NCBI GenBank assembly: GCA_029861485.1 | Contig: JAOTZF010000001.1 | Location: 1-29,599, forward strand | Reading direction: 5' to 3' | Source of the DNA: Thermoleophilia bacterium | GTDB lineage: Bacteria; Actinomycetota; Thermoleophilia; Miltoncostaeales; Miltoncostaeaceae | DNA length: 29,599 nucleotides | Shown here: in pieces, positions 1 through 8,144 of the stretch | Position numbering within the stretch: the stretch's first letter is position 1 | Layout: every line of letters starts with the position of its first letter | Notes under the pieces: generated by a model | Database searches by the model: none | What the model was told of the DNA's origin: nothing | What the model saw: only the letters and a program-made list of their open reading frames with translations | Program-made: the position numbers and the translations under genes

Positions 1-87
1 GCCGGGCAAGATCTCTCGCGAGGCTTTGGGGCGGTCGTAGTGTGAGGGTTCGAACGTGACCCACGCCCTGGGGTCAAGACGGGCCTA

Positions 88-203
88 GTGGGATTGAAGT
101 TGAACCCACACCCCCTGTAAATCGGATTGTTCGACATTCTTCAAAGCCTGAGGCTTCCTCCAAGATAGGCCGACGCAAGGAAGTGGGACTCAAGTTGAAC
201 CCC
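88..203. repeat. 116-bp direct repeat, copy 1
   Basis: Manual alignment with 1517-1632 gives 113/116 identity, with mismatches only at 118/1547, 126/1555 and 146/1575. 60/116 GC (52%), lower than the surrounding genes. Begins with GTGGGATTGAAGTTGAACCCAC and ends with GTGGGACTCAAGTTGAACCCC. Confidence 0.97.
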
Positions 204-282
204 GTCAGGCTGGCGCGCGCCCAAATCGCCGGCTGAGGGTATGCCAGCCGGTGCACGAAATGGTTGGAGGCGTGGTCGCGGC

Positions 283-1263
283 TCACATCGTGATGAGGAC
301 CTTGCCCCGGGCGCGCCCAGCCTCGATGTAGCGGATCGCTGCGGGGACCTCCTGCAGTGGGTAGGTTCGGTCGATGACGGGTATGACCTCTCCCGCTTCG
401 ATGAGTTCCTTCACCGACTGAAGCGCCTCTTTGCTGCCCTTGAAGAAGGGCGCATGGAGCGTCTGTTTGATGAACGGCGACAACATCATCGCGCGGAGGT
501 TGCGGTCTGTCCCACCGACCCAACGCCCACCCCGTCCGCCGATTATCACGAGGGTGCCGTCGGGCGCGAGCCCGCGCCGGAGGTGCCGAAGAGACCGGTT
601 GCCGGCGGTGTCCAGGATGACGTCGTAGCGCCGAACCCCATCCGCGAATTCCTCCTTGGTGTAGTCGATGACGTGATCCGCGCCAATCGATCGCACGAGA
701 TCCATCTTCGCCGTGCTGCAAAGGCCGGTTACCTCCGCACCGAGCGTCTTGGCGATCTGAACTGCGAACGTGCCGACGCCCCCCGCCGCACCGATGACCA
801 GCACAGTCTTTCCCGGCGTGACCTCCCCGAGATCGCGGAGCGCCCGCAAGGCTGTCGGACCGGACGAGGGCACGGCGGCCGCCTGTTCGAAAGTGAGGCC
901 CTCCGGCTTCCCAACCAGGGTGTCCGCCCTGGCGCACGTGTACTCGGCAAGGGAGCCATAGCCGGTACGAAAGCAGTCTCCGAACACCTCATCACCCGGC
1001 TGGAACTCGGTCACACTCGCTCCGATCGCCTCCACCAGGCCGGCGAAATCCGTGCCGCGCACGGGAACCTTAGGTTTGCGGAACCCGAAGCCCATCAGCC
1101 GGATCACGTAGGGCACTCCGGTGGTAAGAGCCAGTTCACCGGGATCAATGGCGGCCGCGCGAACTTCTACCAACACCTCATCGGGCCCGATCGCCGGAAC
1201 ATCGATGTCTTCGATACGAAGGACCTCGGGTGGGCCGTATCGGTCTTGGACCATCGCCTGCAT
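283..1263 (-). CDS. NAD(P)-dependent alcohol dehydrogenase/quinone oxidoreductase-like protein (MDR superfamily, likely Zn-independent)
   Basis: MQAMVQDRYGPPEVL N-terminus, GTDFAG in place of the GHE Zn motif, GAAGGVG Rossmann motif, C-terminal IDRTYPL...GKV. Start moved to ATG 1263, which has GAGGTG just upstream. Confidence 0.9.
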   Translation of the reverse strand: MQAMVQDRYGPPEVLRIEDIDVPAIGPDEVLVEVRAAAIDPGELALTTGVPYVIRLMGFGFRKPKVPVRGTDFAGLVEAIGASVTEFQPGDEVFGDCFRTGYGSLAEYTCARADTLVGKPEGLTFEQAAAVPSSGPTALRALRDLGEVTPGKTVLVIGAAGGVGTFAVQIAKTLGAEVTGLCSTAKMDLVRSIGADHVIDYTKEEFADGVRRYDVILDTAGNRSLRHLRRGLAPDGTLVIIGGRGGRWVGGTDRNLRAMMLSPFIKQTLHAPFFKGSKEALQSVKELIEAGEVIPVIDRTYPLQEVPAAIRYIEAGRARGKVLITM

Positions 1264-1516
1264 GGCACCTCTTCGCGTTGAGGCGCGGACGGCGCCGGTT
1301 CTCACGGATGTCAAGCAACGCTAGTCCGTGGTCTGACGCCGAGACGTCCCCGAAAGCCCCTGAAACGGTCTGCGGCAATGCCGCGCCGCGGGACGGCGGA
1401 GGTCACTCGCTCTATGGAGTGGAGCCTGTCCGCCTCAGACCTGCGAGCCCGGGAGCTGCTGCTATCGGATATCGCTAGGCGGTTGACGCGAGACCGCACC
1501 CGGAGTGAAACGGGCC

Positions 1517-1632
1517 GTGGGATTGAAGTTGAACCCACACCCCCTGCAAATCGGCTTGTTCGACATTCTTCAAAACCTGAGGCTTCCTCCAAGATAGGCC
1601 GACGCAAGGAAGTGGGACTCAAGTTGAACCCC
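1517..1632. repeat. 116-bp direct repeat, copy 2
   Basis: 113/116 identical to 88-203 at offset 1,429. Both copies are preceded by ACGGGCC(TA). Confidence 0.97.
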
Positions 1633-1776
1633 AACGTCGTCGGCCAGACGCCGGTCTGTCTGTGTTGGTTTGGGAGCGTCGGACGACTACGAGCTGACAA
1701 CGACCTCGCGTTGTGAGGTGGCGGTGGCATGCTTCTGGGGCAGATGCCGCCTCATCGTGGACTGACCATGAGGCGT

Positions 1777-4137
1777 CTATTCGTAAGCAAGCGTGTCACG
1801 GATGGTGAGCTTGGCTGCGACCCGCGCGGGGCGGGTTGCGCCGAGCGCTCCGATGACAAGCGCAATGGGAATCCAGACGGCGATGCCGACCCACGAGAGG
1901 CTGGCCGGTAGCGACGCCGCGAGCAGACTGCTGCCGATCACCTCGCGCAACAAGAAGTCCACCACGAAGGAGAGGGCAATCCCGAGCACGCATCCGGCCG
2001 CAGCGATGGCGAGCCCTTGGAGTAGCAGCAAGCGCGTAACGGCCCAACCCGATGCGCCAAGTGTGCGGATCACCCCGACCTCACGGGTCTGTTCGATGAC
2101 TCCGAGAGTCATTGTGCCGGCCACTCCGATCGCGGCCACGATCGCCAGGATGGCTCCGACCGCCAGCAGGAGAACAACGACGAGAACGAAGAGATTGTTG
2201 ACCAAGTCCCGGCGATCAGAGTTGGTTTGGACCACGCCGACCGGAATCCCCGCGTCGCGAGCGGTCGCCTCAATGCGGTCGGCGACTGCAGCCTGATCGG
2301 CGCCCGGTGCGAGTCGCACGGCCAGGAAGTTCGTCTGCCCGACCTCGCCGAGCTCGGCCGCCAGATCCTCGGTTGGCACGTAGACGACAGGGCCGACCAG
2401 GGTGGTGGTCGAAACACCGACGATTCGCCACTCGCGGCGGGCCCCCTCGATGTCGAGTACCACCTGGTCACCGACGCCGACATCGGATTCCTCATCGGCG
2501 AAGTGAGAGTTGACCACGATTGGATGGTCGTCGGCCGCCTCGAACCACCTACCTTCAATCAGGGTTGGGTCGATTGACGGCGAGCCGGTCGGTGCCGCGA
2601 TGAGGCTGACATTCTCGTTCTCCGTCCCATCCGGACGGATGCGGAACGCCTGCTTTTCGAACCAGCCTTCGACTCCTTCGACCGCCTGATCCTTCTCCAG
2701 GACCGCAGCGGCCGTCTTGAGTTCGGTGGTTTCGGTGAGTGCGAGCTCGACGTCATATGACCAGTAGCCGGCAACGTCATCACCGAGGCGCGAGAGGGCT
2801 TGACCGGTGCTGAGAACGCCGACAAGAACAGCGCCGCTCACGGCGATGGTCAGCACGGTGAGTACAAGCCGGGAGCGGTTTCGCACGGCGTTTCGATAGG
2901 CAAGCACTGTCGGTCGGGCGAAGGGCAGGACGGCCCGTCCTCGGCGCGCGGGTGTGGTGATTCCCCGGTCGGAGATTGCCTCTTGGACTGTGACGCGCGA
3001 GGCCCGGCGGACCGAGAGGATCACCGCGGCGATGGGAAGCAGCGTGGCGATCACGATTTCAATCACGATGGTCGCCCACGGGATACCCAGCGGCTCGAGA
3101 TCGAAATTGGCCAGGTCGGCAATGAAGCCGGCGAGGAACCGACCGGTCAGCACTGAGAGCGGAATCGCCACGATGAGGGCGCCCAGGGATAAGAGCAGCA
3201 CGTAGGCGAGGTATTGAGTGGTCAGCTGTCCCGATGTGCCGCCGATTGCCTTCATCACTCCGACCTGGCGTCGCTGTTGCGCCAAAAGCGCGGACACCGT
3301 GTTGATCACCAGGGCGACGGCAATCACGAGCGCAAGCAGCGACAGCAGCCGCATGATGGAGACGACGGATGCTATGGCGTTGTTGGCCCGGTGCTCGCTC
3401 GGCTCTTGAATGGCGCTCGACTCGATAGCAACGTTGGCCGGTTCGAGCACGCCATCGCGAACCGCGGTGGTCATCCCGATCGCCTGATTGCGATCCAACG
3501 GATCATCGGAGGCTCGGATGTAGAGCGAGTTGAGGAGTCTCGAGCCTGTGAGCTTGGCCATCGTCGCCATCGACAGATAGGCGCGTGCCGGACCACCGAG
3601 TGTGGGTGTGACTTCGTAGACGTCAAAGGCGGTCCCGTTGACTGGTAGATCGACCGGCGTCTTGCCGGGCAGGTTGATTGAGACCGTGTCGCCGACCCCT
3701 GCGCCCAGTTCATCGACCGACGACCGTTCCACCACGATTGCGTCGTTTGTCGGGGGCCACGTGCCGGTAGCGGGCTCAATTTTCGCAACCCGGTTCTCCG
3801 CGAAGTCGTTCATCGCGACGAGCTCCACGTTGACCGAGTCGCCCTTTGCATTGGTGACGCGCGTTTCGAGAATGCGCCGCCCCTCGACCTCGCTGACCGT
3901 CGGGTGGGCCGCGACGTCGTCCACCAGTTCGCTCGAGAATGGCTCGGTTCGCAGCATCGCCGAGGGTGGGTTGGCACCCAGGAAGCTCGACTCGAACGAG
4001 GTCCCAATCGTGGCGCCAGCCAAGTACATGGCGCCAACCGCGAGCATTCCAACCGCGAGCGAAGCAATCGCCAAGATCGAGCGTGACTTGTTGAATACGA
4101 GGTCCGAGCGGACCTTGCGCCAGCGCGAGCCCATCAC
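1777..4137 (-). CDS. ABC transporter permease, FtsX/MacB-like (two FtsX-type domains)
   Basis: 786 aa, two TM bundles each followed by Q(RR/TR)xVGVxxxxG(G/A) signatures, large extracytoplasmic domains. 4-bp overlap with the upstream ATPase. Confidence 0.9.
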   Translation of the reverse strand: MMGSRWRKVRSDLVFNKSRSILAIASLAVGMLAVGAMYLAGATIGTSFESSFLGANPPSAMLRTEPFSSELVDDVAAHPTVSEVEGRRILETRVTNAKGDSVNVELVAMNDFAENRVAKIEPATGTWPPTNDAIVVERSSVDELGAGVGDTVSINLPGKTPVDLPVNGTAFDVYEVTPTLGGPARAYLSMATMAKLTGSRLLNSLYIRASDDPLDRNQAIGMTTAVRDGVLEPANVAIESSAIQEPSEHRANNAIASVVSIMRLLSLLALVIAVALVINTVSALLAQQRRQVGVMKAIGGTSGQLTTQYLAYVLLLSLGALIVAIPLSVLTGRFLAGFIADLANFDLEPLGIPWATIVIEIVIATLLPIAAVILSVRRASRVTVQEAISDRGITTPARRGRAVLPFARPTVLAYRNAVRNRSRLVLTVLTIAVSGAVLVGVLSTGQALSRLGDDVAGYWSYDVELALTETTELKTAAAVLEKDQAVEGVEGWFEKQAFRIRPDGTENENVSLIAAPTGSPSIDPTLIEGRWFEAADDHPIVVNSHFADEESDVGVGDQVVLDIEGARREWRIVGVSTTTLVGPVVYVPTEDLAAELGEVGQTNFLAVRLAPGADQAAVADRIEATARDAGIPVGVVQTNSDRRDLVNNLFVLVVVLLLAVGAILAIVAAIGVAGTMTLGVIEQTREVGVIRTLGASGWAVTRLLLLQGLAIAAAGCVLGIALSFVVDFLLREVIGSSLLAASLPASLSWVGIAVWIPIALVIGALGATRPARVAAKLTIRDTLAYE

Positions 4138-4877
4138 GCCACCCTCGCGCGTTCTGAGACAGCACCGTCTTTGACTTCGACGATCCGACGGGTGCGCTCG
4201 GCCAGCTCCCGGTCGTGTGTGACCATGAGGATGGTCCGATCGCTCTCGACCAGCTCATCGAAGAGATCCATCATCGTGGACGCAGACTCCGAATCGAGGT
4301 TTCCCGTCGGCTCGTCGCCCAGGATGATCGGAGGGTCGTTGGAGAGGGCGCGGGCGATCGCCGCGCGCTGTTGTTGACCGCCTGACACCTCAGAGGGCAA
4401 CTTCTCCGCCTGGTCTGCGAGTCCGACCCGATCCAGAAGCTCGCGCGCAAACTCAGGCCGCTGCCGCCGAGGGTGGACCCCACAGAAGTCCATCGGAAGC
4501 ATCACGTTCTCGGCCAGGCTCAGCGTGGGAAGCAACTGGAAGAACTGAAAGACGACACCGACGTTCTTGCCGCGCCACCGCGCGGTCTCGTTTTCGTTGA
4601 GCGCCGATACCTCGACGCCGTCCACGACGACCCGGCCCTCGGTGGGCCGGTCAATGCCTGCCATCAAGTTGAGTAGTGTCGATTTACCCGAGCCAGAGGG
4701 CCCGACCACTCCAACGAACTCGCCAGCGCCGACCAACAGATCCGCGCTCTTTAGCGCGGTGAAGCTGATGCCACCGGTCGTATAGGTCTTCGATACCCCG
4801 TCAAATCTGATCAGCCCGGAGGTGTCGTCGTCGTTGGATGGCGAAGAATCGTCCTGAGAATGTCGTCCAAACCGCAC
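4134..4877 (-). CDS. ABC transporter ATP-binding protein (LolD/MacB-like)
   Basis: Walker A GPSGSGKS, Q-loop VFQ, signature VSGGQQQR, Walker B ILGDEPTGNLD, H-loop VTHD. Start placed at GTG 4877, 8 nt after GGAGG. Confidence 0.92.
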   Translation of the reverse strand: MRFGRHSQDDSSPSNDDDTSGLIRFDGVSKTYTTGGISFTALKSADLLVGAGEFVGVVGPSGSGKSTLLNLMAGIDRPTEGRVVVDGVEVSALNENETARWRGKNVGVVFQFFQLLPTLSLAENVMLPMDFCGVHPRRQRPEFARELLDRVGLADQAEKLPSEVSGGQQQRAAIARALSNDPPIILGDEPTGNLDSESASTMMDLFDELVESDRTILMVTHDRELAERTRRIVEVKDGAVSERARVA

Positions 4878-5583
4878 CGTCTGCACCTCCGTTGTGGTCT
4901 CCCGAAGGCTCTTCGGGGATCGCCGCGTGGCACAGGATGCGTCGGTCCCCCAGGGCACGCATCCGTGGCAATCCACATGCAGTTCGGGCGCTACTGGAGC
5001 GGCCGGACCGGGTGGCAGGCCCGGCCGTGAGCGAGAAGATGGCGTTTGGCGCCACTGAAACGCCTGGAACGCGCCACATTAGGGCGAGCAGCGATGCCGA
5101 GAAGCGAGCCAAGAAACCCCTGCATGACCATCATCCGGACTCCGTAGTTATCCGCATGCGGGAATCCGCCCGTGCGTAGCGCGACAACAAGGACTCACGA
5201 GTCCAAGGCCAGGCTGCAGCCAGCCAGGGTTCGGTTTTCACTGGACTACCGGCACGGGCCTGTATGCACCCGAGCTCACTGACCCTCGCCGCCGGACGAC
5301 CGACAAGGTCGGCCTCACGCCTTCGGCGGCGGGTCGATCTACGGGTTAGCTAGCGCTCCAGTCGGTAGTCGTCGGTGCAACGGGGTCAGCGCGAGGCCGA
5401 GACGCCAAGTAATGGTGGCGCAACTCGTCATCCTGGTCGGCCTGGATGTTGCGGAGATCTTCCGCGTGTAGTCAGCAAGAGTCCGGAGCGGGCCGGGTTC
5501 GAAAGCGACTCATTTCTTCGTGCTCGGCCGCAGCGATACGAAGACACCGCGACCAGGGGAAAGCCCCGTTGTCCACAGGACGT

Positions 5584-5614
5584 ACGGGCTTAGTGGGAGT
5601 GAGGTCGAACCAAA
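5584..5614. repeat. Degenerate single copy of the repeat-boundary site
   Basis: ACGGGCTTAGTGGGAGTGAGGTCGAACC (5584-5611) matches ACGGGCCTAGTGGGATTGAAGTTGAACC (79-106) at 24/28, same orientation. The rest of the 116-bp unit is absent here. Confidence 0.7.
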
Positions 5615-5798
5615 CCCGTTATCTCGCGATGGCGAGGACGGGCAAGCGCGGACTCTCGCCATTGCCGGGAGTCGCCCGTTGTTATCGGGGTTTTCCCCGG
5701 ATGCCTCGTGCCGCGAACGACCCCGATGATCTGCGCTCGAACGCGCGTTACACACGCCCGGTATTGGCGCGCGGCGAGTTCCGGGAGGGGTACGAAAG

Positions 5799-6359
5799 AT
5801 GGAAGGCAAACCGACCCCAGACGACCCGTCGGACAACGAGGCTGACGCCAGCGCGAACCGTCGCTGGCCGACATGGAGACGGCTCCTGTTCATCGTCGGG
5901 GCCATCGTGGTCGGGTTGCTCGTCCTCATCCAGGCGGTGCCCTACGGACGCGATCACACCAATCCCCCAGTGACGGCCACGACAACCTGGGACAGCCCGC
6001 AGACCCAGTCACTCTTTGCGACAGCGTGTGGCGACTGCCATTCCAACGAGACCGAGTGGCCGTGGTACTCCAACATCGCGCCGGTCTCCTGGCTGACCGA
6101 AAAAGACGTCAAGGACGGTCGCGAGGAGCTGAACACCTCGGAGGCGCAGTCCGAGGTTGAAGTCGAGGAGATGGTTGAGGTGATCCGCGACGGGAGTATG
6201 CCGCCGTGGTTCTACACCATTCCCCACCCCGACGCCGACCTCTCTTCTCGAGAGAAAGAGGCCCTCATCACGGGGCTTGAGGCCACCTTCCTCGGTAGGG
6301 AGACCACTGACCCACGAGGTGAGGAGGCGGAGTCTGAGGACGAGCAGGACGAATCCTGA
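5799..6359 (+). CDS. Membrane-anchored c-type heme-binding protein (Haem_bd-like)
   Basis: GGAGGGG RBS; N-terminal TM helix; CGDCH (CxxCH) followed by SNETEWPWYSNIAPVSWL; distal MPP motif. Confidence 0.85.
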   Translation: MEGKPTPDDPSDNEADASANRRWPTWRRLLFIVGAIVVGLLVLIQAVPYGRDHTNPPVTATTTWDSPQTQSLFATACGDCHSNETEWPWYSNIAPVSWLTEKDVKDGREELNTSEAQSEVEVEEMVEVIRDGSMPPWFYTIPHPDADLSSREKEALITGLEATFLGRETTDPRGEEAESEDEQDES

Positions 6360-6462
6360 GCATCCGGTCCAGCGAGTACTCCTCGTGTGACCCGTTCGAG
6401 CAGACCTAGCTGAACCGGCCTGGGGGTGATGGAGGCTTCTGACCGCTGAGAGGATGGAAGCC

Positions 6463-6780
6463 ATGAGCAAGAGGTATCCCCCGGAGATGAAGGAGCGCGC
6501 CTGTCGCCTGGTGGCCGACTGGCGACGTGAGCGACAACGATCAAACGGCGGCTTCAACGAGGTCGCGGCGCAGCTTGATGTCCACCCCGAGTCTCTACGC
6601 GGCTGGTTTCGCCAGTGGCAGATCGACGCCGGTGAGCAACCGGGCATCACGACGGAGGAGCAGAAGCGGATCACCGAGCTGGAGAGGGAGGTCCGAGAAC
6701 TCCGACGAGCCAACGAGATCCTCCGGTCTGCCTCGGCTTTTTTCGCGGCGGAGCTCGACCGCCCACGAAACTCGTCGTGA
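6463..6780 (+). CDS. IS3-family transposase OrfA (HTH)
   Basis: SKRYPPEMKERA...VAAQLDVHPESLRGW...ELRRANEILRSASAFFAAELDR, typical IS3 OrfA. Alternative ATG at 6454. Confidence 0.92.
   Translation: MSKRYPPEMKERACRLVADWRRERQRSNGGFNEVAAQLDVHPESLRGWFRQWQIDAGEQPGITTEEQKRITELEREVRELRRANEILRSASAFFAAELDRPRNSS
6738..6744 (+). promoter_or_regulatory. Putative -1 ribosomal frameshift site (T TTT TTC) joining OrfA and OrfB
   Basis: GCTTTTTTCGCG near the end of orfA, the usual position in IS3-family elements. Confidence 0.65.
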
Positions 6781-7685
6781 GCTACATCGACCAGCACAAG
6801 GACCAGTTCGGGGTCGAGCCCATCTGCGGCGCTTTGCAGGTGGTCTCATCGACCTACTACGCCGCCCGCTCGCGTCCGCCCTCTGCGCGCCAGCGCGAGG
6901 ATCAACGACTCAGTGCTGAGGTGATGCGCGTGTTCGAGAGCAACTACCGGGTGTACGGCAGGCGCAAGATCTGGGCTCAGCTCAACCGCGAAGGCATCCC
7001 GGTCGGGCGCGACCGGGTGGAGCGCCTGATGAAGCAGGCAGGCATCGCGGGAGCAGTCCGAGGAAAGAGAGTCAGAACGACCCGTCCGGACGAGCGCGCT
7101 CCACGTGCGCCTGATCTGGTCGATCGCGATTGGGCGGTATCTGCGCCCAATCGCGTCTGGGTCTCGGACTTCACGTACGTGGCCACCTGGTCGGGCATGG
7201 CGTATGTGGCGTTCGTGATCGATGTCTACTCACGACGGATCGTGGGGTGGCGGGTCGCCTCATCGATGCGCACCGCACTCGTGCTCGATGCGCTCGAGCA
7301 GGCAATCTGGGCGCGTGATGAGCGCCTCGAGGGCCTGATCGTTCACACCGACGCCGGCAGTCAATTCACGGCCATTCGTTTCACCGAGCGCCTGGCTGAG
7401 GTCGGTGCGGCACCATCGGTGGGATCGGTCGGCGATCCGATCGACAACGCGATCGCCGAATCGACCATCGGGCTCTACAAGAGCGAGCTGATCCGACGGC
7501 GCGGGCCCTGGCGCACCCTCGATGAGCTGGAGTTCGCCACCTTCGAGTACGTCGACTGGTTCAACCATCGTCGCCTGCACGGCGAGATCCGCCAGCGACC
7601 ACCTGCCGAGGTCGAAGACCTCTACTACCGTCAACGACCCGCCCCGATGGAGGGGCTCAACTCAGAAGAAATCGGTCTCCACTAA
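6777..7685 (+). CDS. IS3-family transposase OrfB (DDE integrase core)
   Basis: WVSDFTYV, HTDAGSQF, DNAIAES...KSE DDE triad; YVDWFNHRRLH C-terminus. Stop lies within the IRR. Confidence 0.95.
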   Translation: MSYIDQHKDQFGVEPICGALQVVSSTYYAARSRPPSARQREDQRLSAEVMRVFESNYRVYGRRKIWAQLNREGIPVGRDRVERLMKQAGIAGAVRGKRVRTTRPDERAPRAPDLVDRDWAVSAPNRVWVSDFTYVATWSGMAYVAFVIDVYSRRIVGWRVASSMRTALVLDALEQAIWARDERLEGLIVHTDAGSQFTAIRFTERLAEVGAAPSVGSVGDPIDNAIAESTIGLYKSELIRRRGPWRTLDELEFATFEYVDWFNHRRLHGEIRQRPPAEVEDLYYRQRPAPMEGLNSEEIGLH

Positions 7686-8041
7686 GCCCAGGCCGGTTCA
7701 TTTTGCTGGAGGACCCCTCAACCGTGATCCAAACGGGGCCGACCGGCAGATGGACTCCACCTCAACGCCACCCCCTCTGTCAATCACTGGTGGACCTGAC
7801 CCCCTCTCACGGACACCTGCTGACCGGAGAGAACCCGGCACGAAAGGGGCCCCCACGGCCCACGACTGCAACGCTGCTGATCTCGATGCCGTGATCGCCG
7901 CGCGACTGACGGGTGCGCCATCGGCTCGACGGCGAGTGGTTGATCGAACACGATCGCGGCTGTCCTGGCCCTGTCGAACACGCAGCGACAGCCGGGCCAC
8001 AGAGCCGAGGCCGCCTTTGCCACGCGTCGCGGAGGCAACCA

Positions 8042-8067
8042 AAGACCCCGTCTGAACGGCGTTCTCG
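8042..8067 (-). terminator. Possible imperfect terminator hairpin downstream of tRNA-Pro
   Basis: Minus strand GAGAACGCCGT-TCAG-ACGGGGTCTTT: 4-bp perfect core, mismatched extension, short U run. Confidence 0.3.
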
Positions 8068-8070
8068 TAG

Positions 8071-8144
8071 TCGGGGCGGCAGGATTTGAACCTGCGACCT
8101 TCCGGCCCCCAGCCGGATGCGCTACCAGGCTGCGCCACGCCCCG
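8071..8144 (-). tRNA. tRNA-Pro(GGG), CCA not encoded
   Basis: CGGGGCG/CGCCCCG acceptor stem, GCGC D-stem, TCCGG-CTGGGGG-CCGGA anticodon arm, GCAGG-TTCAAAT-CCTGC T-arm, discriminator A followed by CTA. Confidence 0.97.

Follow-up and report, generated by a model that had tools for sequence, protein, structure and literature searches.

Site 3 of a Thermoleophilia gene array as the probable junction of two mobile cassettes

The locus raises the question of why a short motif, here called site 3, stands between an ABC-transporter operon and a heme-protein gene and recurs beside other genes of unrelated function. The window, i.e. the whole stretch of 29,599 nucleotides analysed (Thermoleophilia bacterium, assembly GCA_029861485.1, contig JAOTZF010000001.1), is a contig of a metagenome-assembled genome (MAG) of 67% completeness (G000). 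A preliminary description had placed the motif in the order site, ADH, site, ABC operon, site, heme gene, IS3, tRNA-Pro and had read it as a boundary in an integron-like or tandem-island cassette array. The flanking genes are as described there. We consider site 3 to be probably the junction of two mobile cassettes in an array built by tandem accretion through a large serine recombinase (LSR).

Direct comparison confirmed that positions 5584-5611 are identical to 79-106 at 24 of 28 bases, with four mismatches and on the same strand. A degenerate core pattern matched five times in the window, always on the plus strand (87, 182, 1516, 1611 and 5592), against an expectation of 0.10 from shuffled sequences, and five or more matches were reached in none of 100 shuffles. 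The segments 88-203 and 1517-1632 constitute a 116-nt repeat of 97% identity, each copy having two cores positioned 95 nt apart. Downstream of 5611, neither a second core nor the 95-nt interior was found by the core pattern or the profile scan, as had also been noted before, and a single core is the usual form of the site outside genus g1, the genus of this genome. The intergenic gap, given previously as ~920 bp, measures ~820 bp from the ABC ATPase start (4976) to the heme-gene start (5799). The sites were not called by a tRNA/tmRNA finder. Several other readings of these sequences were discarded. Exact 18-mer matches in other phyla lie in unrelated sequence with no flanking site motif, and their number is near the ~17 chance matches estimated for the size of the collection. 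A CRISPR-like reading of the 95-nt spacing was rejected, the interiors being part-conserved and the copies dispersed, and the reading of 5557-5594 as a Tn3-type 38-bp inverted repeat, or of the region as a MITE, was dropped because the left arm is part of one cassette and the site part of another.

Features of the array in the window (positions are those of the whole stretch)
Feature	Position	Strand	Remarks
Decayed recombinase-tail relic	2-78	+	..PGK..EGSNVTHALG.. with in-frame stop; GGGTTCGAACGT block at 46-57
Double site 1	79-205	+	Cores 88-106 and 183-201; distal end of ADH cassette
Zn-dependent dehydrogenase gene, cargo of ADH cassette	283-1314	-	
Double site 2	1508-1635	+	Cores 1517-1535 and 1612-1630; distal end of ABC cassette
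Cargo of ABC cassette	1777-4976	-	MacB/FtsX permease (1777-4137) and ABC ATPase (4134-4976)
Relic motif GGGTTCGAAAGCGACTCA	5495-5512	+	15/18 bases identical to 46-63
Type-1 head of ABC cassette	5553-5583	+	CCAGGGG..TTGTCCACAGG and 4-nt spacer ACGT; reverse complement of CCTGTGGACAAC-N8-CCCCTGG
Site 3	5584-5625	+	Single-core attachment-type site, core 5593-5611; tRNA-distal end of heme cassette
Heme cassette non-coding leader	5626-5798	+	Contains strong hairpin
Haem_bd (PF14376) gene, cargo of heme cassette	5799-6359	+	
IS3-family element	6411-7700	+	orfA/orfB, ALIL frameshift pseudoknot; in heme cassette tail, AGC target duplication
tRNA-Pro(GGG)	8070-8144	-	Same direction as sites; linked only through collapsed IS3

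Site 3 is a true module boundary. In G001, a genome of the same genus in which at least 19 sites are spread over short contigs (the site-bearing contigs are in general short MAG contigs), window 5584-6408 corresponds to G001:C105 3233-4057 at 98.4% identity with a different gene upstream, and window 1511-3801 corresponds to G001:C243 at 98.3% identity. For the ABC and heme blocks alike, homology begins exactly at the left edge of a site (1511 and 5584, respectively) and the preceding sequence differs; the other end of the ABC homology (window 5573) lies ~10 nt before the motif, with no site there. Since homology starts at 5584, site 3 and its variant letters move together with the heme gene; these letters are retained in the G001 copy of the heme cassette, which is homologous over 825 nt, so that site 3 is not the degenerate or empty copy it had been taken for. 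The heme block in G001 is followed by another site, and in the window an IS3 occupies that place. The claim that the motif bounds functionally unrelated cargo modules is borne out, as both the ABC block and the heme block have other surroundings in G001, with breaks at the motif, and an unchanged ADH-ABC-heme order is not retained there. Furthermore, the genome-wide scan proposed in the preliminary description, performed with a profile of 29 sites, gave matches on only three of the 238 contigs of this genome (C217, C226 and C107), a clustered distribution that is neither uniform nor limited to the window.

Across genera only ~38 nt of the site are conserved. Of the 111 genomes of the family, 21 contain this 38-base site, and they represent 9 of its 25 genera; a reversed control pattern yielded no match in the same 111 genomes. 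Most genomes hold one or two copies by pattern, with 12 in G001 and six in G096. At all 12 loci that also hold a tRNA gene, the site is positioned downstream of the tRNA 3' end and co-oriented with it. tRNA-Ser (tga, cga and gct) was recorded ten times and Cys, Met and Arg(cct) once each, with Pro(ggg) in the window; the site sequence is constant whichever of these five tRNA types it follows. Metagenome contigs likewise have arrays behind tRNA-Ser, with as many as four sites in one orientation. The cargo is unrelated and non-mobile, encoding e.g. NirS, GGDEF-EAL proteins, glyoxalase, multicopper oxidase, methyltransferases, SDR, hydrolases and regulators. On another contig of this genome (locus L120, G000:C226, 1643-3391) the gene for the cytochrome cd1 nitrite reductase NirS lies between two sites, and a denitrification gene may be carried there as a cassette.

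Read in the tRNA sense, a cassette consists of head, cargo and site, and the next cassette begins directly after the site. The type-1 head (CCTGTGGAYAAC-N8-CCCTGG) starts 4 nt after sites, and in G072 it begins 4 nt beyond the tRNA-Ser(tga) 3' end; as the same head occurs with the same spacing behind both, the tRNA end and the site are equivalent partners. One cassette immediately follows tRNA-Ser in G092 and is preceded by a site in G041. Among 62 distinct junctions, a type-1 head was recognised in ten (offset 7-9) and a second motif (ACGTTCGAACCC) in 19; the offset of the latter is 14, 23-25 or 80-84, except for one at 64. Both occur together at eight junctions, window site 3 among them, and about two thirds of all junctions are without a recognisable head. 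The class to which site 3 belongs, seen on eight contigs, is composed of the site, 4 bases, the CCTGTGGAYAAC head and the relic motif ~81 bases further; with both head and relic motif present, site 3 therefore represents a canonical junction class and not a decayed one. The relic at 2-78 is the type-2 head of the next cassette, which was not assembled. A strict head pattern searched family-wide matched only genus g1 and was abandoned as too narrow. One junction in G001 is imprecise: at locus L122 (G001:C167, ~1380-1500) the ABC head breaks off within its arm, and a PPK2 gene ends 120 nt before the joint, with no site present.

The reverse complement of the site resembles the T-arm of tRNA-Ser (stem GTGGG/CCCAC), with a loop of 12 nt versus 7 and an acceptor-like end. 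The boundary repeats are not copies of the target 3' end, as they share the T-stem and differ in the 12-nt loop and in the acceptor strand. Counted by hand, the GGGTTC motif and the shared CC of ..CCCG are ~20 nt apart in the tRNA, compared with 25 nt for the site and 24 nt for the head of the G085 element. For serine integrases, the outer motif bound by the zinc-ribbon domain (ZD) differs in its distance from the centre, being 5 bp closer to it in attB than in attP (Rutherford et al. 2013, PMC3783163), and the hand-counted difference between tRNA and site matches this shift; here the half-sites are read from sequence and the central dinucleotide is putative. By virtue of the 5-bp shift, the tRNA would resemble a B half-site and the site a P half-site, with the head resembling P'; this would also explain the odd 12-nt loop. 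The stem itself is not kept (79.6% of cells pair, compared with 79.2% in shuffles), the “loop” is the most conserved part, and no support from covariation was obtained for an RNA hairpin at the sites.

A candidate enzyme is encoded in G085, where a 585-aa LSR (Resolvase, Recombinase and Zn_ribbon_recom domains; L118:13930-15686, reverse strand) reads towards tRNA-Ser(cga), abuts it and heads a 16-kb island whose end is a site. The C-terminal 70-115 residues of this protein recur as relics abutting tRNA-Ser(tga) in G095, and in G001:C243 a C-terminal relic (a pseudogene tail; E 2e-23) abuts the double site that is orthologous to window 1511-1632. Moreover, the second junction motif corresponds to the codons of the LSR tail ..GQGSNV in G085 and G001:C243, with 5495-5512 as a variant. 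The traces of LSR in the window itself are short tail relics only (2-78 and 5495-5512), and tblastn of 4977-5640 revealed no significant LSR remnant, only the 18-nt motif. Within genus g37 an intact copy is present in G085 only. No intact LSR of the G085 type was found in G000, at its 67% completeness, or in G001, the pseudogene apart, and no recombinases were found on the site-bearing contigs of either. The earlier remark that no recombinase is visible thus holds for this genome, but not for its relatives, where junctions are accompanied by the LSR or by relics of it. Neither an excised circle nor an empty site was seen; population contigs contain a joint from 7700 back to 72, which may belong to another copy of the repeated site. 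No displaced tRNA-Ser fragment was found beyond the G085 integrase. The tRNA-Ser genes that precede recombinase tails (L114 in G095 and L118 in G085) end in an encoded CCA, which the other tRNA-Ser genes examined do not, and this suggests that the element supplies the last tRNA bases. A Resolvase search also identified one short (~210-250 aa) serine-recombinase-like gene per genome in four genomes (G000:C34:5044-5634, G001:C69, G068:C8:470707 and G096:C11:415758); all have a Resolvase domain, those searched for it also the beginning of a Recombinase domain, and they recall DsiA/CcrA-like helpers.

The cassettes were most likely moved by a large serine recombinase. We infer that the sites are substrates of this LSR family, with crossover at the CC of ..CCCG. 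The site would then be a P-type half-site copying the T-arm and acceptor end of tRNA-Ser with its outer motif 5 bp further from the crossover, and the head would be the P' half-site, often still with the last codons of the LSR gene. An LSR-bearing element would integrate at the tRNA-Ser 3' end (attB) or at a resident site, and loss of the recombinase gene would leave one- or two-gene cassettes, mobile only in trans or together with a neighbour. A wider proposal, which we put forward tentatively, is that Thermoleophilia possess integron-like gene capture based on serine-recombinase chemistry, where a P-type T-arm mimic (with the 5-bp loop insertion) ends each cassette and dozens of recombinase-less single-gene cassettes, common to several genera, are served in trans by a rare LSR. 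On this gene-capture reading the cassette end would re-create the docking site, and arrays could therefore grow behind any tRNA-like end.

The same array might be served in trans by a tyrosine integrase that targets tRNA genes, with crossover in the ~9-nt spacer between the inverted arms TTATCCACAGG and CCTAGTGGGATT, which we regard as unlikely. Imperfect inverted arms are present at type-1 junctions, several tRNA-adjacent integrases occur in G000 and G001, and two tyrosine integrases were found near sites, one in G085 (134 nt past a site) and one at locus L127, which together with an HTH_17 excisionase-like gene lies ~1 kb from a double site. However, these two belong to different subfamilies (29% identity), and their homologues are found beside tRNA-Gly and tRNA-Arg genes instead of sites or tRNA-Ser. 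The G085 family does not track the sites, and the homologues of the L127 integrase are associated with those two tRNAs. Furthermore, none of the tyrosine integrases abuts a junction, as LSR tails do, and the 5-bp expansion of the T-loop would be left unexplained. Locus L127 (4235-7597, metagenome contig Ga0224508_10008849) carries a double site of the window type, then genes for an alpha/beta hydrolase and for the integrase and the excisionase-like protein; the stretch after its second core resembles window 1640-1710. Neither is it probable that the motif is a dispersed intergenic repeat (REP/MITE- or terminator-like) at which homologous recombination shuffles modules without a dedicated recombinase. 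The absence of a recombinase in cis, the many headless junctions, the imprecise junction in G001:C167 and the assembly breaks at the repeats would fit such a repeat, but copy number is low, the copies are clustered in this genome and mostly one or two in others, and orientation relative to tRNAs is strict. In addition, head spacing is fixed with respect to both the sites and the tRNA-Ser end, LSR tails occur at junctions, and the ~38 nt conserved across genera are without terminal inverted repeats.

A Xer/dif-type module, in which integrative elements exploit a dif-like site via XerC/XerD, is very improbable. The strict pattern gave a single match in four of five genomes searched and an adjacent tyrosine recombinase pair was present in every genome searched, but weaker second copies exist beside the “single” ones, sites lie behind tRNA genes, and the G041 site (1.71 Mb) is only 467 kb from dnaA (1.24 Mb) on a 3.1-Mb contig and not opposite to it; GC skew around this site is flat and uninformative. 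We likewise assign a very low probability to a structured RNA or tRNA-like processing signal at the 3' ends of acquired genes: the GTGGG/CCCAC hairpin is T-arm-like and the site usually follows cargo genes on the same strand, but Rfam searched at gathering and E-value thresholds gave no match at the sites, and the pairing in the stem, equal to that of shuffles, and the conserved “loop” argue against it. The probability of a canonical integron, with the sites as attC recombined by IntI, is next to negligible. One- or two-gene cassettes, mostly co-directional and each ending in a site, and a core containing GTTGAAC, which fits GTTRRRY, are reminiscent of such a system; yet the best score for IntI (TIGR02249) in G000, G001, G096, G068 and G085 was 56 bits against a cut-off of 265, the repeats are direct and not R''/R' inverted, and the sites fold no better than shuffles (z +0.5 to -1.9), without covariation. 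Of the integron-like or tandem-island reading in the preliminary description, the cassette array of site-bounded modules stands and the integron, with no IntI and no attC-like fold, does not.

The array is a known style of island in integron-like form, and the view that it is an undescribed system can no longer be maintained, given that the kind is already represented by Dehalococcoides ssrA islands, SCC and tycheposons. Composite SCC islands (CcrAB) consist of serine-recombinase elements stacked in tandem at one site, including recombinase-less pseudo-SCC. The arrays share with them the tandem stacking and the recombinase-less members, whereas SCC target the 3' end of rlmH (orfX), need two recombinases and are large; no Ccr pair was seen here. 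SCC are also mentioned in the work on the ssrA-specific islands of Dehalococcoides, which lie in tandem downstream of a small-RNA gene with the DsiB LSR encoded on the reverse strand beside attL, some of them lacking an integration module and being read as cis-mobilizable (McMurdie et al. 2011, PMC3146451). Tandem stacking, an LSR positioned as in G085 and members without an integration module are common to both, but the target is ssrA there and tRNA-Ser and other tRNAs here, and the repeats are 20-bp copies of the target end there and a conserved 38-nt T-arm mimic with 5 additional bases here. Moreover, our cassettes are much smaller (0.7-4 kb) and have mostly lost the recombinase. Tycheposons of Prochlorococcus integrate at tRNA genes including tRNA-Ser(tga), with newcomers pushing older elements inward and with partial tRNAs scattered over the islands (Hackl et al., 10.1101/2020.12.28.424599). 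The choice of tRNA genes, that of tRNA-Ser(tga) included, is alike; however, tycheposons bring their own integrase and replication modules and are flanked by true partial tRNAs, whereas no recombinase accompanies the sites in G000 and G001, the cargo is metabolic or regulatory and the mimic is constant whichever tRNA is nearby. With integrons the arrays have in common small, mostly one-gene and promoter-poor cassettes that end in a recombination site, and a recombinase outside the cassette, but IntI, the attC hairpin and the attI/Pc platform are all missing and the arrays are anchored at tRNA 3' ends.

These data show poorly known sediment actinobacteria gaining and swapping accessory genes singly, the cargo so exchanged comprising dehydrogenases, an efflux-type ABC pair, a heme protein, the nitrite reductase NirS and regulators. 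The site anatomy would provide a natural example of the attP/attB rule, with the T-arm of a tRNA as B and the same arm plus 5 bases as P half-site, and it makes the mechanism directly testable with one enzyme, the G085 LSR. Recombinase-less cassette arrays behind tRNA-Ser are suggested to be a widespread and overlooked alternative to integrons.

The position of the array next to tRNA-Pro, as claimed originally, is doubtful, since the link runs via a collapsed IS3 and the arrays of relatives are mostly behind tRNA-Ser. The IS3 is multi-copy in the population, with ~3.6x the depth of its flanks in population contigs, and its right end is also joined to AGCCGTC followed by a site. This flank pairs with the heme-side flank (..CCTAGC) via a 3-bp AGC duplication and matches the uninterrupted sequence of G001. 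The depth of the IS3 and the alternative paired flank indicate that the link between array and tRNA-Pro is probably an assembly chimera due to repeat collapse. The tRNA-Pro(GGG) locus of G001 is empty, its homology to the window ends at the tRNA 3' end, and its other flank corresponds to G000:C33. The 369 nt between the IS3 and tRNA-Pro (7701-8069) have no match in G001, and another IS3 left end directly follows a site core (joint 112 to 6410). The G+C content is 63-65% over bases 1-8000 and 67-73% in the remainder of the window. Folding of 5548-5697 gave z -2.3 on the plus and -3.1 on the minus strand; in the long hairpin of this segment the head of the ABC cassette pairs with an inverted look-alike in the heme leader (~5675-5698), which is retained in G001, where the head is absent. 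Finally, the type-1 head contains an exact DnaA-box-like nonamer (TTGTCCACA / TTATCCACA) at window 5569-5577 and at L120 (G000:C226, ~3835-3845), which is probably just a recombinase half-site.
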